From Thermodesulfobacteriota bacterium (GTDB taxonomy: Bacteria > Desulfobacterota > BSN033 > UBA1163), in contig JBEKUZ010000017.1 in assembly GCA_049514515.1 (NCBI GenBank), forward strand, positions 1,006 through 65,005: 64,000 nucleotides of DNA. Reading direction: 5' to 3'. The translations under genes were made by a program, and so were the position numbers. Shown piece by piece: positions 15-10,937 of this stretch. The number at the start of each line of letters is the position of its first letter. Positions within the stretch are counted from its first letter, which is position 1. The notes under the pieces were generated by a model, which saw nothing but the letters and a program-made list of their open reading frames with translations, was not told the DNA's origin and searched no databases.

Positions 15-683
15 ATGGGACCGAAGCCTACAGGGCCTTTCAAAACCTTTGAGGATTTCAACAAGATTCATACAATGGTTTTTGTAGAGGAGAGGGAACC
101 TCAGGTAGCCATCACCTATTTTCAGTCTTTGATCGATGCCAACCCCCATCGTTGCGAGGGGTACTATGGTTTAGGTCTGGCCTATCGGAAGATGGGAAGA
201 TTCGATAAATCGATGGAAGTCCTTCAACAGGCGCACTCTTTGGCCCCTAAGGATCTCGATGTATCCAGAGAGCTGGGCATCGTTTATTTCCTTTCAGGAA
301 AGGTGGATCAGGCCATTGAGCATCTCGAGGCCTTACAATCCACTCCCGGACAAGGTCAACACAATGACCCGATGATGATTTATTACCTTGGGAGGGGATA
401 TCAGGAGAAAGGGGACCTTGCCAAAGCTCTCCCACTCCTTCTGAAGATTCAAAAGGAGAAACCTGAATTCCTTGATGTCTACTACTCCCTCGGATCTGTT
501 TACGGAAGAACAGGGCAGAAGGGACTTTCCCATTTCTATTTTGGGAAATATTTCAAATTAAAGCAGGAGAGAAACAACGCCCTCCTTCACTTCAGAACAG
601 CTATTGACTTGCTGGAGAGGGGAAGCCCCGAGAGAGAAGAAGCCCAAAGCGAGATCAAAGAAATCACGTCACCCAAACGATGA
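15..683 (+). CDS. Tetratricopeptide (TPR) repeat protein; possibly 5'-truncated by the window edge
   Basis: Repeated TPR-like helical motifs (GLGLAYRKMGRFDKSMEVLQQA, LGRGYQEKGDLAKAL, LGSVYGRTGQ). The ORF begins 14 nt into the window. Confidence 0.6.
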   Translation: MGPKPTGPFKTFEDFNKIHTMVFVEEREPQVAITYFQSLIDANPHRCEGYYGLGLAYRKMGRFDKSMEVLQQAHSLAPKDLDVSRELGIVYFLSGKVDQAIEHLEALQSTPGQGQHNDPMMIYYLGRGYQEKGDLAKALPLLLKIQKEKPEFLDVYYSLGSVYGRTGQKGLSHFYFGKYFKLKQERNNALLHFRTAIDLLERGSPEREEAQSEIKEITSPKR

Positions 684-931
684 AACATTTATGGGAGGGC
701 AACCCATCTTTTCCATCCATTTTTAAAAAGGCCAACATTATATCCGAGACCCAAGACGACTACCGGTTCAAGAGAGACGAAGGCAGGATGAAGCCCGCCG
801 AGGTTTATTGCAAAGAGATTTTAGAGATCGGGGTTGACTCTTAGTGAAGTGATTGTGATATTCCCCCACGGCCCAATTGGGTGAACGGTTCGGGACCTTG
901 CTTGGCCAAGGTCCATGGGAGAGACGACCGC

Positions 932-3625
932 ATGAAGGAACGGACGAAGAAGTCGAAAGAGGAAATGATGAGGCTCAATCAGGAGCTTTCGATCCTCAAT
1001 GCCATCGGTCAGACCGTCAATCAGTCCGCCGATCTGGACGAAATTCTGAATAAGAGTGTGGATAAGATGATGGAGATGATCGACGTCCACCAGGCCAGCA
1101 TTTATCTTTTTGACGAAAAGAAGGGCGAGTTGACGTTAGTGGTTCATCGCGGATTTTCCAAGAAGTTTTTGGAACTTATGAAGCATAGAAAGTTCGGGGT
1201 AGGAATATCTGGAAAAGTTGCCCTCTCGGGTGAGTCGGTATTCGTGGAGGACTACCCCAATCATCCGGATGCCTTAGCCATTGCGGTTGAGGATGGGTTG
1301 AAGTCCCTGGCCGTTATCCCCGTTAAGTCGAGAGACAAAATCTACGGGGTGTTAAACATCGCGAAAAAAGAATTTTCAGAGATCGCTCCGTTTGATAAAA
1401 ACCTCTTCAACTCGATCGGACAGATCATCAGCGGAGCGATGGAGAGAACTTTTCTTTATACCGAGAACGTTAAACGTCTGGAAGAGCTGAAGACGCTCTA
1501 TTCGATCAGCCAGGAGATTGCGTCGAAACTTGAGTTAAAAGTGATTCTTCAGAAGATCGTGGAGAGCGCTGTGGAGCTCTTGGGTGGTGATTCAGGAGCC
1601 ATTTCCCTCTGGGACAATCGAAAGCAGAATTATTCTATTGCGATTGTGCATGGATTATCCGAATCGTTTATTGGAATGGAAGTTTCTCAACCCGGGGGTG
1701 GTGTGTCAGCGGAGGTGATTGCCAAGAAGTCCCCCGTCGTCTATAAGGATTATGAGCACCATCGTAACCGATTAGAAGCATTAGATTCCTATCATATTCA
1801 AGAAGGTTTGGGCGTGCCTTTAACCGTTAGGGAGATGATTATTGGGGCGATGGTGATTTGTTCTTCTAACCCTGAGGTCCACTTTAAACAAAAAGAGATC
1901 GATCTTCTGTACAACTTTTCCCATCAGGCGGCCGTGGCTATTGGAAATGCCAAACTCTACGAGGATTCTTTGGCAAAGATCAAACAATTGACTACCCTTT
2001 ACGAGATGGGGAAAACCCTTTCCTCTACCCTGGATCTTGACGATTTGCTCAAAAAGGCATTGGAACTTCTCAAAGAGCGTTTAGGCTACACCGCCTGCGG
2101 AATTCTTCTCCTGGATAAAGAAAAGGACGAACTCTATATGAAGCAACTCATCGGCGGAAATCTGGAGGAGATCAAGAAATTCAAATTTAGAGTTGGAATC
2201 GATGGTATTGTGGGTTGGGCGGCCAAAACCGGGGGACTCGTTTATGTCCCCGATGTTTCCAAGGATTCCCGATACATTCCTGTGGGACCTTGCATCAAAT
2301 CGCAGGCAACCTTTCCTCTCAGGGTGAGGGATCAATTGTTCGGAGTTTTAGACATTGAGAGCGATGAACTCAACGGGTTCGATGAAGAAGATTTGAAGAC
2401 GCTCTCTTCCTTTGCGAGCCAGATGAGCATCTCGATTGAAAATGCTCAGCTTTTCTCCAATCTGAAGCAGACGCTACAGGAATTAAAGCAGGCCCAGGAC
2501 CAGATTGTACAGGCTGAGAAATTAAGAGCCATGGGAGAGATGGCCAGTGGCGTGGCTCACGATTTTAATAACGTCTTGGCTGTCGTCCTGGGGAACATTC
2601 AGCTCCTCCTCCATCAGTTGGATCACCTGAGCCCTGAAGAAGTTCGTGAAGGCTTGAAAACCATTGAGCGCTCCTCGAAGGATGGCGCGGAGACGATCCG
2701 TCGTATACAGGAATTTACGGGCGTGAGAAGGGATAGAGAGTTTGTCACCCTTTCTCTCAACGAAATCATGATGGAAGTCGTGAACATTACTCAACCCCGT
2801 TGGAGGGATCAGACACAAAAGAAGGGGATACAGGTTGGATTGACAACTCACCTGGGAGATATCCCTATGGTTATGGGGAATCCTTCTGAACTGAAGGAGG
2901 TGCTGACCAATATCGTTTTCAATGCTGTCGACGCAATGCCTAACGGGGGTAAGCTGACGGTCACCACGCAACCCCAAGCAGAGGATTGGGTGGAAGTGAG
3001 GATTGCGGATACAGGAGTCGGAATGACCGAGGAGGTGAAAAGGAGGGTTTTTGACCCATTTTTCACCACAAAGGGCGTGACGAATTCCGGGTTGGGAATG
3101 AGCGTTTCCTACGGGATCATCAAGCGTCATGGAGGCGAAATCCTGATCGAAAGCGAATTAGGAAAGGGGACGAGTTTTGTCATTCACCTGCCGACAGGAT
3201 ATGGGGAAGAAGAAGCCGTTGCGAAAGAGGTCACCCCGGTCAAGGAGTCGCGACAAGCACGGATCCTGGTGATCGACGACGAAGATTCTGTTCGAGATGT
3301 TCTCTCCCGCATGTTGAAGGCTAAAGGTCATCAAGTGGCAGTTGCCTCCAACGGCGAAGAGGGAATTGAACGGTTCAGATCTGAGCCATTTGATTTGGTT
3401 TTCACGGACCTGGGAATGCCGAAGGTCTCTGGATGGGAAGTGGGAAAGACGATCAAGGCGATCAATCCCAAAGTCCCCATCGCCATGATCACCGGATGGG
3501 GGGTGGAGCTGGATAGAGAAAAGTTGAGCGAAAGCGGGATTGATCTCAGCATCGCTAAACCTTTCAACTTCGATCAAGTGATTAATTTGGTCTTCGAAGC
3601 CATGGAGTTGAAAGAAAGGATGTGA
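932..3625 (+). CDS. Hybrid sensor histidine kinase with multiple GAF domains, HisKA, HATPase_c and a C-terminal receiver
   Basis: GAF-like segments are present. H-box is AHDFNNVLAVVLGNIQLL. ATPase N and G boxes are NAVDAMPNGG and GVGMTEEV..GLGMSV. Receiver motifs are ILVIDDEDSVRD and FTDLGMPKVSG. The ATG at 932 has a GGGAGAG Shine-Dalgarno upstream; an alternative GTG start lies at 881. Confidence 0.85.
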   Translation: MKERTKKSKEEMMRLNQELSILNAIGQTVNQSADLDEILNKSVDKMMEMIDVHQASIYLFDEKKGELTLVVHRGFSKKFLELMKHRKFGVGISGKVALSGESVFVEDYPNHPDALAIAVEDGLKSLAVIPVKSRDKIYGVLNIAKKEFSEIAPFDKNLFNSIGQIISGAMERTFLYTENVKRLEELKTLYSISQEIASKLELKVILQKIVESAVELLGGDSGAISLWDNRKQNYSIAIVHGLSESFIGMEVSQPGGGVSAEVIAKKSPVVYKDYEHHRNRLEALDSYHIQEGLGVPLTVREMIIGAMVICSSNPEVHFKQKEIDLLYNFSHQAAVAIGNAKLYEDSLAKIKQLTTLYEMGKTLSSTLDLDDLLKKALELLKERLGYTACGILLLDKEKDELYMKQLIGGNLEEIKKFKFRVGIDGIVGWAAKTGGLVYVPDVSKDSRYIPVGPCIKSQATFPLRVRDQLFGVLDIESDELNGFDEEDLKTLSSFASQMSISIENAQLFSNLKQTLQELKQAQDQIVQAEKLRAMGEMASGVAHDFNNVLAVVLGNIQLLLHQLDHLSPEEVREGLKTIERSSKDGAETIRRIQEFTGVRRDREFVTLSLNEIMMEVVNITQPRWRDQTQKKGIQVGLTTHLGDIPMVMGNPSELKEVLTNIVFNAVDAMPNGGKLTVTTQPQAEDWVEVRIADTGVGMTEEVKRRVFDPFFTTKGVTNSGLGMSVSYGIIKRHGGEILIESELGKGTSFVIHLPTGYGEEEAVAKEVTPVKESRQARILVIDDEDSVRDVLSRMLKAKGHQVAVASNGEEGIERFRSEPFDLVFTDLGMPKVSGWEVGKTIKAINPKVPIAMITGWGVELDREKLSESGIDLSIAKPFNFDQVINLVFEAMELKERM

Positions 3626-4344
3626 TGGCCTCAGCGATTGATCCCATCGCGTTGGCCGACGAGGCTGGGAAGATTGTTAGTTCTGGAGAGGAAAGGAAAT
3701 ATTACCGATTCCGTCCTGCTCTTTATTACGGGGGGATCGCCACAGCTGACTGCGTGGGATGTTGTTTGAGGTGCCTCTTTTGCTGGTCCTGGCGCATCGT
3801 GGTTCAACCTGAAAAGGCAGGACGATTCTACTCGCCGGAGGAGGTAGCTGAAAATCTCACTTCGATCGCCGGGAGAAAAGGATTTCATCAAGTTCGGATA
3901 AGTGGTAACGAGCCCACCCTTCACCGATCCCACCTCTTAAGTGTTCTCGACCTCATTCCCAAGGAGATTCATTTCATCCTTGAGACCAACGGGATTTTGA
4001 TCGGCCATGATCCTTCTTATGCAAAGGACCTCTCCCGTTTCCCTCATCTCTATGTCCGGGTGAGCCTGAAAGGGGCCTCTCCTGAGGATTTCACCCATTT
4101 AACCAATGCAAGACCTGAAGGATTTAACTATCAATTGGAGGCGCTGGAGCACCTGGTGGGGGAAGGAATAAATTGTTTCCCGGCCGTGATGGCAAGTTTT
4201 TCTTCCCAGGAGGAGATAAAAAGTTTGAGGCGGAAATTAAAGGGGATCCGGCCCGATTTTGAAGACTTTGAGGAAGAGGAATTGATTCTCTACCCCTTCG
4301 TGTTAGACCACCTCCGGAAAGCCGGCCTTTCTTATTCAATCTGA
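3622..4344 (+). CDS. Small radical SAM enzyme of the PFL-activase-like type, overlapping the stop codon of the histidine kinase
   Basis: CxxxCxxC motif in CVGCCLRCLFCWSW, of the C-L-R-C-L-F-C type seen in glycyl-radical activases. The GTG/ATG start at 3622/3625 overlaps the kinase TGA at 3623-3625. Confidence 0.65.
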   Translation: MMASAIDPIALADEAGKIVSSGEERKYYRFRPALYYGGIATADCVGCCLRCLFCWSWRIVVQPEKAGRFYSPEEVAENLTSIAGRKGFHQVRISGNEPTLHRSHLLSVLDLIPKEIHFILETNGILIGHDPSYAKDLSRFPHLYVRVSLKGASPEDFTHLTNARPEGFNYQLEALEHLVGEGINCFPAVMASFSSQEEIKSLRRKLKGIRPDFEDFEEEELILYPFVLDHLRKAGLSYSI

Positions 4345-4359
4345 AATCTAAAATTGTGT

Positions 4360-5280
4360 CTACCACCATCGCCAGAGGGCAATAACAAGGGTGATCAAGA
4401 AGACGAAAATGAGATTCATGTAAGCCATGAAATAGAAAACTTTTTCGTATGGCGGTTTTTCAGGTTTTGTTTCAACTGGCGTCAGCTCGGCTATTTCGGG
4501 CATCGTCCATATTTTCTCTTCCCCATGAGGCGCTGTCTTAAGAAGATCTGTCAAGTCATTGCCTGCCTGATGCTTTTTGAAGTGGGTTCCTCCTTTCCAA
4601 ACCTTACTCAGACATACATCATAGACCTTGCCTTTGTAAGCGAAATAGGCTGGTCTATTCTCTGTACCGTCAAAATGTGGGAGGTCATCGAAGGTCATTC
4701 TGGCCTTGGGTTGAGTGGGGATGGAAGTCCTTTGTTTCCTGATTTTAGGCCCAATCACAAATGTCACGATGAAGGCCGTCGCCACCATGATCGCGAACAG
4801 GAATATCTTCACGCTCAATAAAATTCCAAATCTTGTGGCATAGAAGATTTTCCATGCTGGGATTCGAGAGACCGTTAACAGCGTTCCTGTAATCGAAAGG
4901 ATAACGATCCCAAGCCACCCGAGGATCAGTTCCCCTTTTGGAAGACCTTTTGCTGCATACGCCGGTTTCAGCAATATATGGACATATAGAATAGTTCCAA
5001 ACCAGGCAATGGCCATCAGAAGATGGACGTATCCGACGATCAACCGGACCACTTTTTGAATGGTACTGAGAGGGCGATAAATGCCTTTCGCTTTCAGATC
5101 TTCCCTGAAGGCTTCTCCATTCTTTGTCAGTTTTCCTCCTGTGGCATCCACATGACAGACCTTACACTCAAACCCCGTCTGTTGAGCATATTCAGGATTG
5201 GAGTGCGAAACCGCAGGGACACAAATGATGGATAGGAAAAAGAGGGCCAGAACATGGGTATTCAAAAGAGACTTCATCAA
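4360..5280 (-). CDS. Membrane-anchored c-type cytochrome fused to a C-terminal cytochrome b5-like heme-binding domain
   Basis: Signal peptide, then a single CKVCH heme c motif, then about 4 TM helices. The C-terminal segment FDGTENRPAYFAYKGKVYDVCLSKVWKGGTHFKKHQAGNDLTD matches the cytochrome b5 / MAPR-like fold (VYDVT..HPGG..AGxDxT pattern). Confidence 0.6.
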   Translation of the reverse strand: MMKSLLNTHVLALFFLSIICVPAVSHSNPEYAQQTGFECKVCHVDATGGKLTKNGEAFREDLKAKGIYRPLSTIQKVVRLIVGYVHLLMAIAWFGTILYVHILLKPAYAAKGLPKGELILGWLGIVILSITGTLLTVSRIPAWKIFYATRFGILLSVKIFLFAIMVATAFIVTFVIGPKIRKQRTSIPTQPKARMTFDDLPHFDGTENRPAYFAYKGKVYDVCLSKVWKGGTHFKKHQAGNDLTDLLKTAPHGEEKIWTMPEIAELTPVETKPEKPPYEKVFYFMAYMNLIFVFLITLVIALWRWW

Positions 5281-5387
5281 TCGGTCATTTTAAGCGTAAA
5301 GAGATCTTTGAACAAAAGGGCGAACAAATCTTACGGTAACACTTCATGTTCGAACTCCATTTCGTTGTCTGTTTTTACCGAGGTTAA

Positions 5388-5870
5388 CTATCCCACCAGG
5401 CAGACGGCTATTCCTGCTCCTCGACTGGTGATCTTGTTCGCAATGCTTCCCATGAGAGCGTGTGCCGTAGCCGAGGCACCGCATCGTCCCATAATCAGAG
5501 TCTGATATCCCCCCGCCTTGGCTTCGGCCAGAATGCATTCCGCCGTGTTTTTGACGGACTCGGAAACCGACTTCGTTTCGATCTGCTTCGGGTTGATCCC
5601 TCTCTGCGTGAGGCTCTCAATCGCGGGCTGAAAAACAGACTCGATCTTGGCCTGTTGGTTGGCCAGCCACTTGTCGAGAACTTTTCTTCTGGCCGCCTTT
5701 TCCTCTTCATTCAGGATATGCCCGTCATCCCAGAGCTCCGGAGGAACTCCCGGGGAGACATGATAGAGGGTGATCTGTAAATCACTTATACCCGTGAACT
5801 GTTTGCCCGCATAGTCCACTGCTTTTGAAGCGCCCTCTGAGCCATCAATGGCAATCAATATCTTTCTCAC
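5388..5870 (-). CDS. uspA: Universal stress protein (UspA family)
   Basis: MRKILIAIDGSEGASKAV at the N-terminus and the C-terminal ATP-binding-type motif LIMGRCGAS...GSIANKI. 22 nt downstream of the qNOR stop codon. Confidence 0.8.
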   Translation of the reverse strand: MRKILIAIDGSEGASKAVDYAGKQFTGISDLQITLYHVSPGVPPELWDDGHILNEEEKAARRKVLDKWLANQQAKIESVFQPAIESLTQRGINPKQIETKSVSESVKNTAECILAEAKAGGYQTLIMGRCGASATAHALMGSIANKITSRGAGIAVCLVG

Positions 5871-5892
5871 GTCGATCCCTCCTTTTCGCCCA

Positions 5893-8160
5893 TCATCTTC
5901 TCACGAATCGATAGGTGAGTCCTGCTGAAATGAGTAAAGGGACCACGCCCAACAGAATGAAAACGGCATCCGCCGGCAAACGCATCCACTCGATCAGAGT
6001 GGTGATGCGAGCATTTAGAAACTCAGGACCTCTCGCATGCCAATATCCGTTCTTCAATACATCGAAGAACTGGAGCACGCCCCCAGGAAAGAGATTCAGA
6101 ACCACCATCCCCGCCAGGCCGATATTCAGCCCCCAGAAGGAGAGCCGAATATATTTCTCCACCCGTGCCCACTCTTCATCGGGCAATACCTGCCGAATGG
6201 CGAAAACCATGAAGGCAACAGCGAACATTCCGAACACGCCCATCATCGCAGCATGGCCGTGATTGGGGGTGAGTATCGTGCCCACCTCGAAATAGCTGAC
6301 AATAGGCAGGTTGATGAGAAACCCGAATATCCCAGCCCCGACAAAGTTCCAGAATCCCACCGCCATCATAAAATAGAAGGTCCATTTGTGAGGGATCGAG
6401 ATTTCTTTGCCGCAGATGTCGCATTTTCCCTCGGACAACTTTATAAAGTCCCAGGCATCCAGTGTCAGCAGTGTCAGGGGTACGACCTCCATGGCGGAAA
6501 AGGTGGCGGCAAAGGCCATCGTTACGTTTGACTGTCCCGTCCAATACCAGTGATGCGCCGTGCCGATGATGCCGCCCCCGAGGAAAAGAATCGCATCTAA
6601 GTAAATGACCCGGGTTGCTGTTATTCGGGTGACCATTCCGAGCTTGTAGAAGAGGACAGCCACCATCGTGGTGACAAAGAGTTCAAAGAAGCCTTCCACC
6701 CACAGATGGATAATCCAAAAACGCCAGTTGTCCACCACCGTGAAGTGGCTCGTACTGGTGAAGAACATGGCCGGTAGATAAAACAGAGGAATCGCAAGAG
6801 CCGCCAACAGGAAGAGGGTGGAAATCTCACGTTCTTCCGGTTTTTTTCTTGCGGGACTGCTCGCTCTGAATATCAAGACGAGCCAGATGATCAGGCCGAT
6901 CGCCAGCAAAATCTGCCAGGCACGACCCAGGTCAAGATATTCCCATCCCTGATGTCCAAACCAGAACCAGAGTTTTCCAAGGAGTTGATAGACGCCAAGC
7001 ATCTCGCCCAGCAGACTGCCGAAGACGACGATAACCAGTGCAACAAAGAGAAAATGGATCCATTTTGCCTGGCCTTTTGGTTCTCTGCCTCCCAATGAGG
7101 TGGCGAGAAACAACCCTCCTGCGATATAGCCGGTGGCTATCCAAAAGATGGCTAACTGTAAATGCCAGGTGCGAAAGACATTGCCTGGAAAGAATGAAGA
7201 TAGATCAATGCCATAGAAACTTCCCGGATCGGCGCGGTAGTGAGCCGTTGCGCCTCCGACGAGGACCTGGGCTAAAAATAGCAAGGCAACAACTACAAAA
7301 TACTTTATTGTCGCTTTCTGGCTTTCGGCGACCGCCCCGGGGATCATTTGAGGATGGATATGTTCGCCCCCACCTTTCCAGCCAAGAAAATTGAATCTGC
7401 CGAAGGAGAAAAGAACGATGGCTGTTCCGGCAAGGAGGGTAATAAGGCTCAAAGCACTCCAGAGAACCGCGTCACCGGTTGGTGTATTTCCGATCATGGG
7501 ATCGTAAGGGAAATTATTTGTGTAAGAAAATGATTTCCCAGGACGATTTGATGCGGAGGCCCATGCGGTCCAGGCAAAGAAAGCGGTCAGTTGCTGGAGC
7601 TCTTTTGGATCCTTGATATGGTTGATCAGCAAGCCTCGATTTAACAGGGGTTGTGCAAAGTATTCTGTCCACTTTCTTATTTGGTTTCCGTAAGACATTA
7701 CTTCAGGAAGGGTGAAGGTCAACGTTTTGGTCTGCTGGTCATAGCGATTCTGTTTCAGCAACTGCTGGACTTCTGCAGTGACGGCAGCTCGTTCAGTCAA
7801 TGTGAGGTCCTGCCACTCGAGATGATAAATCTGTTTTGCGAGGAGGGTACTCGTATCCACGGCAAGCGTGTGAAGATACTCGGCGGAAAAATCAGGCCCG
7901 AGATAGGCACCGTGCCCCCAGATGGTCCCATTCTCCATCAGTCCGTATTTCAGGAAGACTTGTTGGCCAGTCACGATATCGTTGTGGGTAAAGATCGTTT
8001 CCCCGGATGGACCCACAACATTTTCGGGAATGGGTGGGGCATCCTCATGCGCCCGGATGGCCATCCAGATCAACACGGAAAACCCTATGACTAAGACGAT
8101 GATAACAGACCTTCTCCACCAGGGGGACAGTTTTTGAGAAGGACCTTTTTTCTCTGCCAT
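5893..8160 (-). CDS. norZ: Nitric oxide reductase large subunit, quinol-dependent type (qNOR / NorZ)
   Basis: 755 aa. One N-terminal TM and a roughly 200-aa hydrophilic domain (GLMENGTIWGHGAYLGPDFSAEYLH), then a 12-TM heme-copper-oxidase core. The non-heme Fe ligands are canonical (HLWVEGFFE and GTAHHWYW). The heme b/b3 ligands are canonical (NHGHAAMMG). The M24 stop and the qNOR start are 22 nt apart. Confidence 0.8.
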   Translation of the reverse strand: MAEKKGPSQKLSPWWRRSVIIVLVIGFSVLIWMAIRAHEDAPPIPENVVGPSGETIFTHNDIVTGQQVFLKYGLMENGTIWGHGAYLGPDFSAEYLHTLAVDTSTLLAKQIYHLEWQDLTLTERAAVTAEVQQLLKQNRYDQQTKTLTFTLPEVMSYGNQIRKWTEYFAQPLLNRGLLINHIKDPKELQQLTAFFAWTAWASASNRPGKSFSYTNNFPYDPMIGNTPTGDAVLWSALSLITLLAGTAIVLFSFGRFNFLGWKGGGEHIHPQMIPGAVAESQKATIKYFVVVALLFLAQVLVGGATAHYRADPGSFYGIDLSSFFPGNVFRTWHLQLAIFWIATGYIAGGLFLATSLGGREPKGQAKWIHFLFVALVIVVFGSLLGEMLGVYQLLGKLWFWFGHQGWEYLDLGRAWQILLAIGLIIWLVLIFRASSPARKKPEEREISTLFLLAALAIPLFYLPAMFFTSTSHFTVVDNWRFWIIHLWVEGFFELFVTTMVAVLFYKLGMVTRITATRVIYLDAILFLGGGIIGTAHHWYWTGQSNVTMAFAATFSAMEVVPLTLLTLDAWDFIKLSEGKCDICGKEISIPHKWTFYFMMAVGFWNFVGAGIFGFLINLPIVSYFEVGTILTPNHGHAAMMGVFGMFAVAFMVFAIRQVLPDEEWARVEKYIRLSFWGLNIGLAGMVVLNLFPGGVLQFFDVLKNGYWHARGPEFLNARITTLIEWMRLPADAVFILLGVVPLLISAGLTYRFVRR

Positions 8161-8181
8161 GGTATTCTCCTTAGCGTGAGT

Positions 8182-9303
8182 CTATTTCTCAAGTTGCCGA
8201 GGATATTCGGTTAGAACCATCGGTCCTTTCAGGCTCACCACCACGGTGTCTTCTACCCGGACGCCCCACGGACCTGTGTACAATCCACAATTACCTACTG
8301 CGATGACTACGTTCCTCTCGAGAGGAAGTGGCTCTTTCTCCCCATGGAAGAAGGCATGGCCCGGAGGCAAAGGAGATTCCTCGAAGTCAATGCCCACCCC
8401 ATGAATGGGAGGTCCAAAGATATGCCCGCCATGCCCTCCTTCTTTGACCACTTGACGAAGCGTCTGCTCCAACTCAACCATTCCAACTCCCGTCTTCACT
8501 TTGGCGATGGTGTTTTGCTGAGCTTTCAGATATAGATCGTAAGCGGTCTGCTGCTCGGCCGTCGGTTGACCTACACACACCGTCCTGCAGATATCCGCAC
8601 TATAACCGTTGACGATAGGATGGATGTCGATCATCACCAGATCGCCGGCCTGCAATTTGCGAAGTGTTGGAAAACCATGGGCAATATTCGTGCGCGGGCC
8701 AGAAGAGACGTAAGTGCGCCAGAACTCCTCTGCGCCAGCCCGTCGCATAGCAAACTCCGCCTTGGCCGCCACCTGGCTCTCCGTCATCCCTGGTTTCAAA
8801 GCTCCCACGGCTGCTTTCATTCCCTTTACAGCCACTTTTGCTGCGGCTTTGATGCGTTTGATCTCCTCTTTATCCTTGACGATACGCAATTCAGAAAGGA
8901 TGTGCGTGCAATCCTTGACTATTATTGCTGCAGGTTTGGCATGGGGATGGGTGAGTATGCCCATCATGGATTGTGTGAGAAAGGTATACTCCAGCCCGAC
9001 ACTCCCTTCTTTCACTCCAAAATGTTCAAAGTTGTGGGCGATGGAGTGGATCATCCCCACTTCATCATCAAAGCCAACGATGTGATCAAAGTGGGCGAGT
9101 TGTTTTACATCCATGACATCGGTTTGCGGAACTCCCAGAGCCACCTTTCCATCCTGAGTGATCATGGCATAGGCGCAGAGTCGCCCGTCACCTGTCAGGT
9201 AGAACATATTCGAAGGTTTGGTGAGCAAAAGGACGTTGAGACCTGCTTCCTTCATCAATTGGCTGCATCGCGTTAGACGTTCCGGATATTGTTGAGCACA
9301 CAT
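8182..9303 (-). CDS. M24 family metallopeptidase (Xaa-Pro aminopeptidase / creatinase fold)
   Basis: Pita-bread-fold metal-ligand context: DLVMIDIHPIVNGYSADICRTV, HGVGIDFEESP, and the N-terminal creatinase-like domain. Confidence 0.75.
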   Translation of the reverse strand: MCAQQYPERLTRCSQLMKEAGLNVLLLTKPSNMFYLTGDGRLCAYAMITQDGKVALGVPQTDVMDVKQLAHFDHIVGFDDEVGMIHSIAHNFEHFGVKEGSVGLEYTFLTQSMMGILTHPHAKPAAIIVKDCTHILSELRIVKDKEEIKRIKAAAKVAVKGMKAAVGALKPGMTESQVAAKAEFAMRRAGAEEFWRTYVSSGPRTNIAHGFPTLRKLQAGDLVMIDIHPIVNGYSADICRTVCVGQPTAEQQTAYDLYLKAQQNTIAKVKTGVGMVELEQTLRQVVKEGGHGGHIFGPPIHGVGIDFEESPLPPGHAFFHGEKEPLPLERNVVIAVGNCGLYTGPWGVRVEDTVVVSLKGPMVLTEYPRQLEK

Positions 9304-9324
9304 TTCTAAGCCTCCATTGATTCC

Positions 9325-9355
9325 CCTCGCCCCCCTTTATAAAGGGCGGGCGAGG
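9325..9355 (-). other. GC-rich stem-loop between the octaheme gene and the M24 peptidase gene (CCTCGCCC...GGGCGAGG)
   Basis: Inverted repeat seen directly in the sequence. No U-run follows on the transcribed strand, so it could be an RNA processing or stability element or a partial attenuator. Confidence 0.4.
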
Positions 9356-9359
9356 ATTA

Positions 9360-10610
9360 TTATTTCTTTTTTGCCTTTTCATGCATTTCTGCCGCCATTT
9401 CCTTAATTTCTGTCAGGTCCCTCTGCATCTCGCTCCAGCCATACCAGAAGGCATAGTCCGGGTTCGCATGAAATGCTCCTTCGAATGTCCTCATCCGGTG
9501 TTCGAGAAACATGACAAAGAGTTTTTGCTCGACGACGGTTGGAGCATCAGAAAAGGTGAGCAAGTCCGGAAACGGATAAGCATAGTTTTTGGGTTTGGGA
9601 AGGATGCCGTCTTTGTAAAGACTGGCTACTGTCCGGATTGCCTCTGCCATGAGACGATCTGCGTCTTTAATCGTCATATCGCCTTTTGCCAGCTCTGCTT
9701 TAGCAAAATTGATAGAGTGACATCGGTTACATGCCTTAACCATCTTGTCGCGCTCTTTCTGCCAATCTTCCTGGGTCAGCCGGGCCACATTTGCCGCCTT
9801 CACCACGTCTAAGCGGTCGGTCGGTTTCCCTTCAGGGTCGAGAACCCCAAGGGCCTGTAGAATCGTTGCACGGTCAGCGGCCCACTGCTTGTCCTCCGGC
9901 ATGGGGAGTCTCACGGCAAGAAATCCCCAGGCTGTGAGTACACCGTGATTTCCGTTCTGCATATGGCAGGTCTGGCAGGTTGGGGCGGAAATGGTTGAAG
10001 GGAGCACCTTGATTTGCTTAAGCATGTATCGGACGCCATGTTTCGAGCCAGAATACATCTCCCATTGAGGATGGTCGAAACCCGTGTGGCAGGTCTGGCA
10101 GGCCTGTGGTTGCTTCGCTTCCTGAACGGAGAAAGTATGCCGGGTATGGCATGCGTCGCAGGAGGCCAGGCCAAATCCTACGCCTTCCTTCTTTAATTCC
10201 TTTATGTCGGTTTCGCTCTTCAGCCCAATCTTGTGGCATCCTCCGCAGCCCTTCATGCCTTCGATCAGTTCCATGGGTTGCCAGTGTATGGTAGGCATTG
10301 CGTTCATCGCCGCCCACGCAACAGCATGCTTTCCGCTTTTGAATTGTTTTACCCGGGCTTCATGGCACGCTCCGCACGTATCGGGAGTGGGAATTTTCGC
10401 CTTTGCCACATCTTGAGCCGTTTTGTGTTGATCACCATGGCAATCTGAACAGCCAACCTTATTCTGATGGTGTTTGCTCAGTTGCCAATCCGAGACAATA
10501 TTAGGCGTAATTTTTTTATGGCATTCCACACATACCTGGGCTGAAGCAACAGAAATAAAGACCAAACTAAAGAAAGTAATAAGCACCGTTCGAAATGTTA
10601 TTCGTCCCAT
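9360..10610 (-). CDS. Octaheme c-type cytochrome with HAO-family-like heme spacing
   Basis: Signal peptide followed by eight canonical CxxCH motifs (CVECH, CSDCH, CGACH, CGGCH, CDACH, CQTCH, CQTCH, CNRCH). Seven lie in the first ~220 aa and the eighth follows an ~80-aa gap, as in hydroxylamine-oxidoreductase-like octaheme proteins. There is no CxxCK or CX15CH motif. Confidence 0.6.
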   Translation of the reverse strand: MGRITFRTVLITFFSLVFISVASAQVCVECHKKITPNIVSDWQLSKHHQNKVGCSDCHGDQHKTAQDVAKAKIPTPDTCGACHEARVKQFKSGKHAVAWAAMNAMPTIHWQPMELIEGMKGCGGCHKIGLKSETDIKELKKEGVGFGLASCDACHTRHTFSVQEAKQPQACQTCHTGFDHPQWEMYSGSKHGVRYMLKQIKVLPSTISAPTCQTCHMQNGNHGVLTAWGFLAVRLPMPEDKQWAADRATILQALGVLDPEGKPTDRLDVVKAANVARLTQEDWQKERDKMVKACNRCHSINFAKAELAKGDMTIKDADRLMAEAIRTVASLYKDGILPKPKNYAYPFPDLLTFSDAPTVVEQKLFVMFLEHRMRTFEGAFHANPDYAFWYGWSEMQRDLTEIKEMAAEMHEKAKKK

Positions 10611-10848
10611 ATCTCCCTCCTTTTGAGATCATATTCCAATAAGGTGATCATTTCCGCTGCCTGCCCTGTATCCCGCGAGACGCGGGACTAGGTTCAGGGC
10701 CTGTCGGCAGGTCGGTGATTGGATTTCGGTATGATAAGGTTGTAGGCTTACCCTCCTTAGCCCCTACCTTCATGGTCTCTTTCCATTCTAAACATCTCGC
10801 CATTCCTATATCAATCTTTTTTTTGAGATCTTTTTAGGTTCAGGGTAC

Positions 10849-10899
10849 GCCCCGCCCTCGGTCTGGACCGGGGCCGGCAGGCAGGGGCGGGGTTCTTTT
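10849..10899 (+). terminator. Strong GC hairpin (GCCCCGCCC...GGGGCGGGG) followed by TTCTTTT, downstream of mlaD
   Basis: Inverted repeat plus a T-run. It lies in the 330-nt gap that also carries repeated ggttcaggg..cggcagg motifs. Confidence 0.4.
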
Positions 10900-10937
10900 C
10901 TCGTATGGTCGCCTTAATGAGTAAGGCTGCGATGGGT

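Follow-up and report, generated by a model that had tools for sequence, protein, structure and literature searches.

The gene at positions 4360..5277 (minus strand) of the 64-kb window analysed here, a stretch of a Thermodesulfobacteriota genome (contig JBEKUZ010000017.1), raises the question of what a protein carrying both a c-type and a b5-type haem site on one membrane anchor is for, and which enzyme it serves. The open reading frame (ORF) list and the sequence give a product of 305 amino acids, which we call T, followed by a stop codon at 4360..4362. The start is the ATG at 5277; an alternative TTG lies one codon upstream, at 5280 (ORF span 4360..5280). An earlier note on this DNA had described a mono-haem cytochrome c joined to a four-helix anchor and a C-terminal cytochrome b5-like domain, with a functional tie to a quinol-dependent nitric oxide reductase (qNOR) encoded upstream, and had made its case depend on two points, the conservation of CxxCH in homologues and a b5-family match of the C-terminal segment. 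We find that T is a real, widespread bacterial membrane protein, in which a signal peptide and a CKVCH haem c domain are followed by transmembrane helices TM1-TM3, a cytochrome b5 domain and TM4. Its three parts all come from known families, and their combination is apparently undescribed. We regard T as a membrane electron-transfer cytochrome on an unexpected scaffold, whose recurrent partner is better sought in an octahaem cytochrome of the hydroxylamine oxidoreductase (HAO) family than in the qNOR.

T has 2100 homologues at E<=1e-3 in a large protein collection, the best of them 94% identical. The 120 closest homologues among the matches listed are 72-94% identical to T, and a library clustered at 50% identity holds 98 clusters at E<1e-30. 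Conservation was judged from 36 diverse full-length homologues, 27-48% identical to the T of the window; fractions of 36 refer to this sample. Invariant residues are C38, C41, H42, H85, G94, G131, K157, W227, G230, H232, H236, P250 and H251. The same 36 homologues were the input for an AlphaFold2 model of T, which has a mean predicted local distance difference test (pLDDT) score of 87 and a predicted TM-score (pTM) of 0.76.

T begins, on reading of the sequence, with a Sec-type signal peptide (residues 1-26, MKSLLNTHVLALFFLSIICVPAVSHS, 5200..5277, minus strand like all features of T; cleavage predicted), which is modelled as a helix at residues 2-19 and a low-confidence linker at 21-26. It leads into a small periplasmic haem c domain of 45 residues (27-71, 5065..5199), assigned by CxxCH conservation. 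The sole CxxCH of T is CKVCH at residues 38-42 (C38, C41, H42; window 5152..5166), confirming the single haem c site that had been read after the signal peptide. The motif is kept in 36/36 homologues and, among the matches listed, in all representatives that span the region. Residues 27-71 contain no Met or His conserved across the 36-homologue alignment that could be the distal haem c ligand, and a Pfam scan of T gave no Cytochrom_C or Cytochrome_CBB3 match at E<=1. Because of these two results, the region reads as a minimal haem c site, not as a standard class I c-type domain. Residues 9-47 of the T family profile match residues 5-43 of PDB entry 6QVM ('multiheme cytochrome cf', E 5.5e-7), covering its N-terminus with the signal peptide and first CxxCH. 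This match hints that a multihaem cytochrome may have supplied the small domain of T, by way of its first haem unit.

The second haem site lies in a cytochrome b5M domain, residues 190-265 (4483..4710), assigned from Pfam, two PDB structures, the AlphaFold2 model and Foldseek; it is modelled with a mixed alpha/beta structure. Pfam Cyt-b5 (PF00173) matches residues 207-260 with 26.0 bits against a cut-off of 23.7. The structures are 6NZX from Hadesarchaea (43% identity; E-values of 1e-14 for T alone and 6e-27 for the family profile) and 6VZ6 from Methanococcoides burtonii (36%; 4e-12 and 7e-25), both described by Tamarit, Teakel, Cahill and co-workers (bioRxiv 2021). A Foldseek comparison of the modelled domain with 6NZX and 6VZ6 gave TM-scores of 0.93-0.94 at root-mean-square deviations of 1.2-1.4 Å (0.93 and 1.2 Å for 6NZX). 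The b5 identity given in the earlier note therefore holds; the position does not, as the domain occupies the cytoplasmic TM3-TM4 loop and is followed by TM4.

In the prokaryotic cytb5M class, haem b is bound through His42 and His61, and His46 and Ser34 contact the haem (10.1101/2021.11.30.470528, 10.1101/2021.11.17.468889). A gap-free alignment to 6NZX places these residues on His232, His251, His236 and Ser224 of T, respectively. The predicted axial ligands His232 (4582..4584) and His251 (4525..4527) are invariant (36/36), as is His236, and Ser224 is present in 32/36 homologues. With every one of the haem-contact residues of 6NZX kept in all or nearly all homologues, this is very probably a haem b site with bis-His ligation. 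It lacks the MAPR-specific MIHIR insertion and has the bis-His positions rather than the MAPR tyrosines. The archaeal structures are free-standing soluble domains of ~78 residues that share the fold and ligands of the b5M domain of T, whereas that of T is inserted into a loop of a polytopic membrane protein. The two cytb5M papers describe free-standing domains and an operon specific to the candidate phyla radiation (CPR) with ferric-reductase-like genes, and mention no CopD or cytochrome c fusions (10.1101/2021.11.30.470528, 10.1101/2021.11.17.468889).

The membrane part that carries these domains is, in the model, a four-helix (half-CopD) bundle. The helices, taken from the model and supported by conservation, are TM1 (residues 72-108, 4954..5064), TM2 (114-138, 4864..4938, with the invariant G131), TM3 (149-184, 4726..4833) and TM4 (276-304, 4366..4452, with F281, A285, N288 and L289 conserved). 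The four helices of the proposed anchor are thus correct in number; AlphaFold2 and Pfam show them in a 3+1 arrangement and as a CopD-like bundle rather than a generic anchor. TM1 contains the invariant His85 (5023..5025), towards the periplasmic side, and at its cytoplasmic end His100 (4978..4980), which is part of an HxxxxxxWFG motif and present in 30/36 homologues. The nearly invariant cytoplasmic loop motif G111-L-P113-x-x-E116 (4930..4947; its second position varies) precedes and overlaps TM2. The invariant Lys157 (4807..4809) of TM3 lies at about the same membrane depth as His85.

Pfam CopD (PF05425) matches residues 120-185 of T with 33.7 bits against a cut-off of 32.1. Among the matches listed, PF05425 is precomputed for all 120 close homologues and PF00173 for most. 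The NCBIfam copper_CopD equivalog model gives T a score of 34.9, far below its cut-off of 195, so T is not an equivalog of CopD; no specific NCBIfam model was found. The T family profile aligns with residues 143-259 of Escherichia coli YebZ (TM5-TM7) with 39.9 bits, placing His85 of T on YebZ His154 and Lys157 on the lysine of the YebZ sequence LLLLKAIL. The WFG motif and the glycines of TM2 and TM3 are also shared. At the position of YebZ His135, the profile alignment has no histidine in T. Both of these YebZ histidines, His135 and His154, are close to the periplasmic side, and the H154A substitution abolishes copper uptake; in a survey of CopD proteins, ~35% were truncated four-helix forms with one histidine and ~4% had cytochrome c domains (PMC11923076). 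T resembles this truncated class, with four TM helices instead of eight and one of the two conserved histidines. The profile match, the conserved residues, the topology and the periplasmic orientation of the histidine all link T to the CopD importers (PF05425; E. coli YebZ, Bacillus subtilis YcnJ, PcoD). Unlike them, it has neither His135 nor a CopC partner, and carries a haem c domain at the place where CopC docks and a b5 domain in the last cytoplasmic loop. These comparisons argue strongly that His85 and Lys157 form a conserved pocket in the periplasmic leaflet that was inherited from CopD. In HemJ (UPF0093), another member of the CopD-like clan, a TM1 histidine is a haem b ligand, and the bundle of T may conceivably bind haem b likewise; the Pfam scan gave no match of T to this family.

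Covalent haem attachment happens on the periplasmic side of the membrane, and three TM helices separate the CxxCH of T from its b5 domain. A c-type extension after TM4 is present in 7/150 of the 50%-identity representatives that span TM4 (among the matches listed). In P0147, P0152 and P0176, which are full-length proteins of 727-734 residues, 8 extra CxxCH motifs follow straight after TM4; P0151, P0154, P0155 and P0179 are shorter variants with CxxCH-rich sequence at this place. A c-type domain after TM4 implies that the C-terminus of T is periplasmic and the TM3-TM4 loop cytoplasmic. The N-terminal CopC and C-terminal YtkA domains of B. subtilis YcnJ are both extracellular (PMC13344008), and homology to YcnJ and CopD implies the same topology for T; the YebZ alignment agrees. 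Loop charge counts, read by the positive-inside rule, are indecisive alone. Helix parity, CopD topology and the c-type fusions together make a strong case for a periplasmic haem c site and a cytoplasmic b5 haem site, which bears out the placement of the two haems on opposite membrane faces in the earlier note.

Domains of the b5M type are not always cytoplasmic, to judge from three matches in the 50%-identity library. P0146, P0160 and P0185 contain 3-6 tandem cytb5M-like domains; P0146 and P0185 start with lipoprotein signal peptides (…LSAC, …LVAC), and P0160 with a hydrophobic segment. These proteins resemble extracytoplasmic arrays of b5M domains and may come from Gram-positive bacteria.

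Apparent variants of T that lack a domain did not stand up. The b5-less P0171, P0229 and P0256 are frameshifted, and the haem-c-less variants are mostly contig-end fragments starting with V or L, although P0142, P0167 and P0192 start with Met. Since the domain-less forms are frameshifts or fragments, the haem c, CopD and b5 modules appear always to travel together, these three Met-starting sequences aside. A 131-residue ORF in a Thermodesulfobacteriota metagenome-assembled genome (MAG), located 3 bp after an HAO-like gene (L063, 2138..3784), consists of the b5M domain and TM4 only; it could be a tail-anchored b5M protein or else what a deletion has left of T. We found no described family or curated model with the architecture of T in Pfam, NCBIfam, PDB or the literature, in agreement with the suspicion that it was new. 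Literature searches combining CopD with b5, HAO with b5, and 'steroid binding protein' with HAO returned nothing describing it. The sole annotation in the searched collections is a JGI label, 'predicted heme/steroid binding protein/uncharacterized membrane protein'.

Candidate partners were sought in 148 loci, 68 from species-representative genomes and 80 from metagenomes, by clustering of neighbours and tblastn with the window proteins; a true qNOR was called by its N-terminal domain. The 68 hosts are Syntrophaceae, Syntrophorhabdus, other Thermodesulfobacteriota MAGs, Nitrospirota, Aminicenantes, Geobacteraceae and Nitrospinales, and include the cultured Geobacteraceae Geomobilimonas luticola, Pelotalea chapellei, Geotalea and Geobacter sp. 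AOG1. The metagenome loci are all close relatives (64-91% identity) and add no lineages. The best-matching locus (L001, 94% identity) is from a 'delta proteobacterium' MAG.

In the window, a qNOR of 755 residues (5893..8160, minus strand; PDB 3AYF, E 1e-174) is indeed encoded upstream of T on the same strand, and a Usp gene (5388..5870, minus strand, identified by Pfam) lies between them, ending 107 bp before T. The qNOR-Usp-T arrangement recurs in L001 and L072. The functional tie to qNOR suggested by the earlier note does not survive the co-occurrence check: a true qNOR is found near T in 6/148 loci, all of them relatives at least 66% identical. In many relatives the gene directly upstream of T is pfk instead, in some of them even with a qNOR in the block, and elsewhere T stands among housekeeping genes. 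The link is therefore lineage-specific, and the neighbouring qNOR is not a specific partner of T; it was inserted into an N-oxide gene block in this lineage specifically.

A stronger association emerged with the gene beyond the qNOR. At 9360..10610 (minus strand), 4 kb upstream of T and separated from it by the qNOR and Usp genes (5388..8160), the window encodes a 416-residue HAO-family octahaem cytochrome c with a signal peptide and 8 CxxCH motifs (Pfam Multi-haem_cyto). Its nearest solved relatives are HAO-family enzymes, the closest being Kustc0458 (PDB 6H5L, E 4e-31), which is longer. Kustc0458 is a reductive HAO that converts nitrite to NO, also reduces NO and hydroxylamine, and needs a dedicated cytochrome partner (PMC8042395). 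That partner, Kustc0457 of Kuenenia, is a soluble dihaem cytochrome c, whereas T is a membrane protein with c- and b-type sites. The HAO-like protein and the qNOR of the window could possibly form a nitrite/NO-handling gene block in an anaerobe-like genome.

One connection between T and HAO-like proteins is a fusion, which occurs in several lineages. The extra C-terminal domain of the long T variants is PF13447. In P0152 it covers the whole mature HAO-like protein of the window with 28% identity (E 1e-46), and the fused domain of P0176 matches the same protein with E 7e-34. An AlphaFold2 model of the natural fusion P0152 has a poor multihaem domain (pLDDT 64, pTM 0.46). The fused genes are surrounded by unrelated ones, for instance for a TRAP transporter, GlgE and exopolysaccharides, so that no other partner is apparently required, and T with its HAO-like domain looks like a self-sufficient unit. 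As a separate gene, the HAO-like protein is encoded within the T locus in 48/148 cases, and in 11 loci its gene immediately precedes T on the same strand (<400 bp). It adjoins T in Geotalea (L043, convergent, PF13447 confirmed) and in a Desulfobulbaceae MAG (L049, divergent); two Nitrospira MAGs (L025, L068) have it within 3-8 kb of T. Fusion, adjacency and proximity in ~5 lineages exceed the ~1-2% that we estimate for a few-copy gene. Given the fusion, the operon adjacency and the repeated proximity in other phyla, an HAO-family octahaem cytochrome is better supported than qNOR as the recurrent partner of T.

A second recurrent neighbour is a short NorB-like oxidase with a dihaem cytochrome c. 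In L027, a Nitrospirales MAG, this pair is directly upstream of T. The short NorB-like protein has only weak ccoN and CtaD matches in NCBIfam, and may be an uncharacterised NOR-type or C-family-like oxidase. More widely, a block of dihaem cytochrome c, short COX1/NorB-like protein (440-465 residues) and DUF364/DUF4213 'heavy-metal chelation' genes precedes the HAO-like gene and T (L027, 7732..9877; L002, 3876..5195; L005, 4691..5515; L009, 4162..4857). Synteny around T is confined to the Syntrophaceae-like clade (T at least 63% identical), where dihaem cytochrome c, short NorB-like COX1, DUF364, HAO-like, optional M24 peptidase, optional pfk and T genes follow each other on one strand, with a radical SAM gene after T on the opposite strand. 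The radical SAM gene was considered as a conserved partner and rejected: it is convergent downstream of T in this clade and in Geobacteraceae, but not specifically related.

In our preferred but tentative proposal, which we judge to fall somewhat short of probable, T is an inner-membrane electron-transfer module, built on a half-CopD bundle, for periplasmic HAO-like and NOR-type reductases. The periplasmic haem c of T would exchange electrons with periplasmic multihaem N-oxide reductases. The main candidate among these is an octahaem cytochrome of the HAO family that resembles the reductive Kustc0458; the short NorB-like oxidases may, through their cytochrome c subunit, provide a second. T would then be a functional counterpart of the NrfH- or cM552-type proteins that serve NrfA and HAO. 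Like NrfH, NapC and cM552, it would link a periplasmic multihaem N-oxide enzyme to its electron supply, with a haem c at the membrane surface beside a conserved Lys-containing pocket. The resemblance would be functional only: those proteins are not homologous to T and have one TM helix, four c-type haems and no cytoplasmic domain, whereas T has one CxxCH, four TM helices and no PF03264 match in its T part.

The electrons could be supplied in two ways. A cytoplasmic reductant may reduce the b5M haem, from which electrons would cross the bundle; alternatively, menaquinol may be oxidised at the His85/Lys157 pocket beside haem c. The first route is favoured by the two-faced design of T and by His100, which most members keep at the cytoplasmic end of TM1, and a trans-membrane electron relay through T is plausible. 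The second route leaves the b5 domain unexplained.

Several observations weigh against the preferred proposal. The haem c site lacks a conserved distal ligand, as described above. His85 is the single invariant intramembrane histidine, His100 being absent in 6/36 homologues, and from His85 to the cytoplasmic face there are ~15 helical residues, or ~22-27 Å by helix geometry, which is long for single-step tunnelling. His85 and Lys157 are themselves ancestral CopD residues tied to copper uptake, with no evidence for a haem or quinone site. No conserved cytoplasmic reductase gene was found among the neighbours of T. Many of the HAO hits fall within one clade and are not independent; the block of that clade also holds peptidase and pfk genes, so that synteny alone accounts for some of the HAO signal. 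In most lineages outside the Syntrophaceae-like clade (Geobacteraceae, Aminicenantes and the majority of Nitrospirota), T has no redox neighbour and stands among housekeeping genes (ligA, pcrA, dnaE, accA, sucCD, ftsZ, birA).

A bolder form of the electron-transfer proposal makes T a new class of trans-membrane conduit, in which a CopD-fold bundle between b5 and c haems would feed HAO-like and NOR-type enzymes from a cytoplasmic reductant and so bypass the quinone pool. We consider this doubtful. The crossing might rely on a cofactor at His85/Lys157 and, in most members, His100, or on an oligomer interface. In reductases with proven trans-membrane transfer, paired histidines bind two haems within the membrane; T has no such arrangement. 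Cytochrome b561/Dcytb, NOX/FRE and STEAP proteins, and the urate oxidase PuuD (DUF989 with a cytochrome c; core four-helix unit), have a helical membrane domain that couples a cytoplasmic-side redox event to an outward-facing haem, in the manner proposed for T, but with other folds and cofactor sets.

The main rival to electron transfer is redox-coupled copper import, because His85 corresponds to the copper-critical residue of CopD. T would be a CopD-type importer of copper (or another metal) or a metalloreductase: copper would be bound and passed on at His85, the haem c domain would replace CopC and reduce Cu(II) to Cu(I) at the entry, and the b5M haem would supply or remove an electron, as in the eukaryotic Fre, STEAP and Dcytb reductases. 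The Pfam and NCBIfam CopD matches, the alignment of His85 with YebZ His154 and the existence of truncated or cytochrome c-bearing CopD proteins (PMC11923076) are all in keeping with this, as is the finding that cytb5MY genes adjoin ferric-reductase-like membrane genes in CPR bacteria. We nevertheless think it unlikely. The equivalent of YebZ His135 is absent, and fusion to a complete HAO-type octahaem enzyme ill suits a copper importer. The annotated recurrent neighbour clusters, leaving aside unannotated clusters and singletons, which were unscanned, contain no CopC, PCuAC, Sco or copper-resistance gene, compared with ~70% of copD genes that are so paired. Moreover, the hosts probably have few copper enzymes, since most of them are strict anaerobes.

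A role of T in assembling or metallating NOR-type haem-copper enzymes, in which it would deliver or reduce the active-site metal or haem of qNOR or the short NorB-like oxidases in the way of CuB-loading CopD/CtaG factors, is decidedly improbable. NorB-family genes do occur upstream of T (the qNOR of the window and 6 relatives, the short NorB-like genes in ~20 more loci, adjacent in L027), the block includes the DUF364 'heavy-metal chelation' gene, and CopD/CtaG-type proteins act in oxidase assembly (PMC9145763; PMC13344008). Against this, a NOR gene within 10 kb is missing in most of the family, the fusion partner is HAO-like and not a NOR, Pfam finds no Caa3_CtaG match, and two dedicated haem sites fit catalytic electron transfer better than a chaperone.

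More improbable again is a role in haem handling, for cytochrome c maturation or haem export, in which the b5M domain would pick up cytoplasmic haem b and the histidine-bearing bundle pass it across the membrane. Eukaryotic MAPR proteins have been discussed as haem chaperones, T has a conserved histidine in a TM helix, and its hosts are rich in c-type cytochromes. However, cytb5M proteins are stable bis-His cytochromes, unlike the Tyr-ligated MAPRs (10.1101/2021.11.30.470528), and T has an invariant CxxCH of its own that marks a resident cofactor; with one haem resident and covalently fixed, and with a b5 site of the stable bis-His kind, T is unlikely to serve in haem trafficking. Pfam also shows no similarity of T to CcsBA, CcmC or CcmF.

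Least supported, and very improbable, is the version of the earlier note, a dedicated trans-membrane relay giving the adjacent qNOR a non-quinol supply, for which the shared strand, the 107-bp spacing and the arrangement repeated in L001 and L072 are outweighed by the rarity of qNOR near T, by pfk in its place in many relatives and by the self-sufficiency of qNOR with quinol in solved homologues, although the match of the window protein to 3AYF shows homology only.

On the preferred proposal of an HAO-like/NOR-type electron-transfer module, T is a concrete and testable candidate for the redox partner of reductive HAO-like enzymes, carried by Syntrophaceae-like Thermodesulfobacteriota, Geobacteraceae, Nitrospirota and Aminicenantes. 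To our knowledge, no electron donors of such enzymes are known outside anammox bacteria and Epsilonproteobacteria, and bacterial b5-type cytochromes are rare and without an established respiratory role. T offers a physiological setting, open to testing, for both the cytb5M domain and the truncated CopD bundle; if the conduit idea were true, it would provide the first assigned physiological role for a prokaryotic cytb5M domain. The CopD bundle, so far studied as a copper importer, is here combined with redox domains, which means either that evolution has turned it into a scaffold for electron transfer or that CopD-type copper import is coupled to redox chemistry. In the meantime, the 'heme/steroid binding' label from JGI hides T genes from surveys of the nitrogen cycle and of electron transfer.

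A promoter and terminator scan of positions 4000..10900 gave signals at background level. In ~40 loci (e.g. L003, L004, L005, L081, L085 and L093), pfk (6-phosphofructokinase, PF00365) ends ~6 bp before the start of T, a gap that suggests co-transcription of the two genes. On the other side of T, the window encodes two proteins on the plus strand, convergent to T: a TPR protein (15..683) and, on reading of the sequence, a 914-residue sensor histidine kinase/response-regulator hybrid (881..3625). Both genes are syntenic across the Syntrophaceae-like clade (neighbour clusters c1 and c3).

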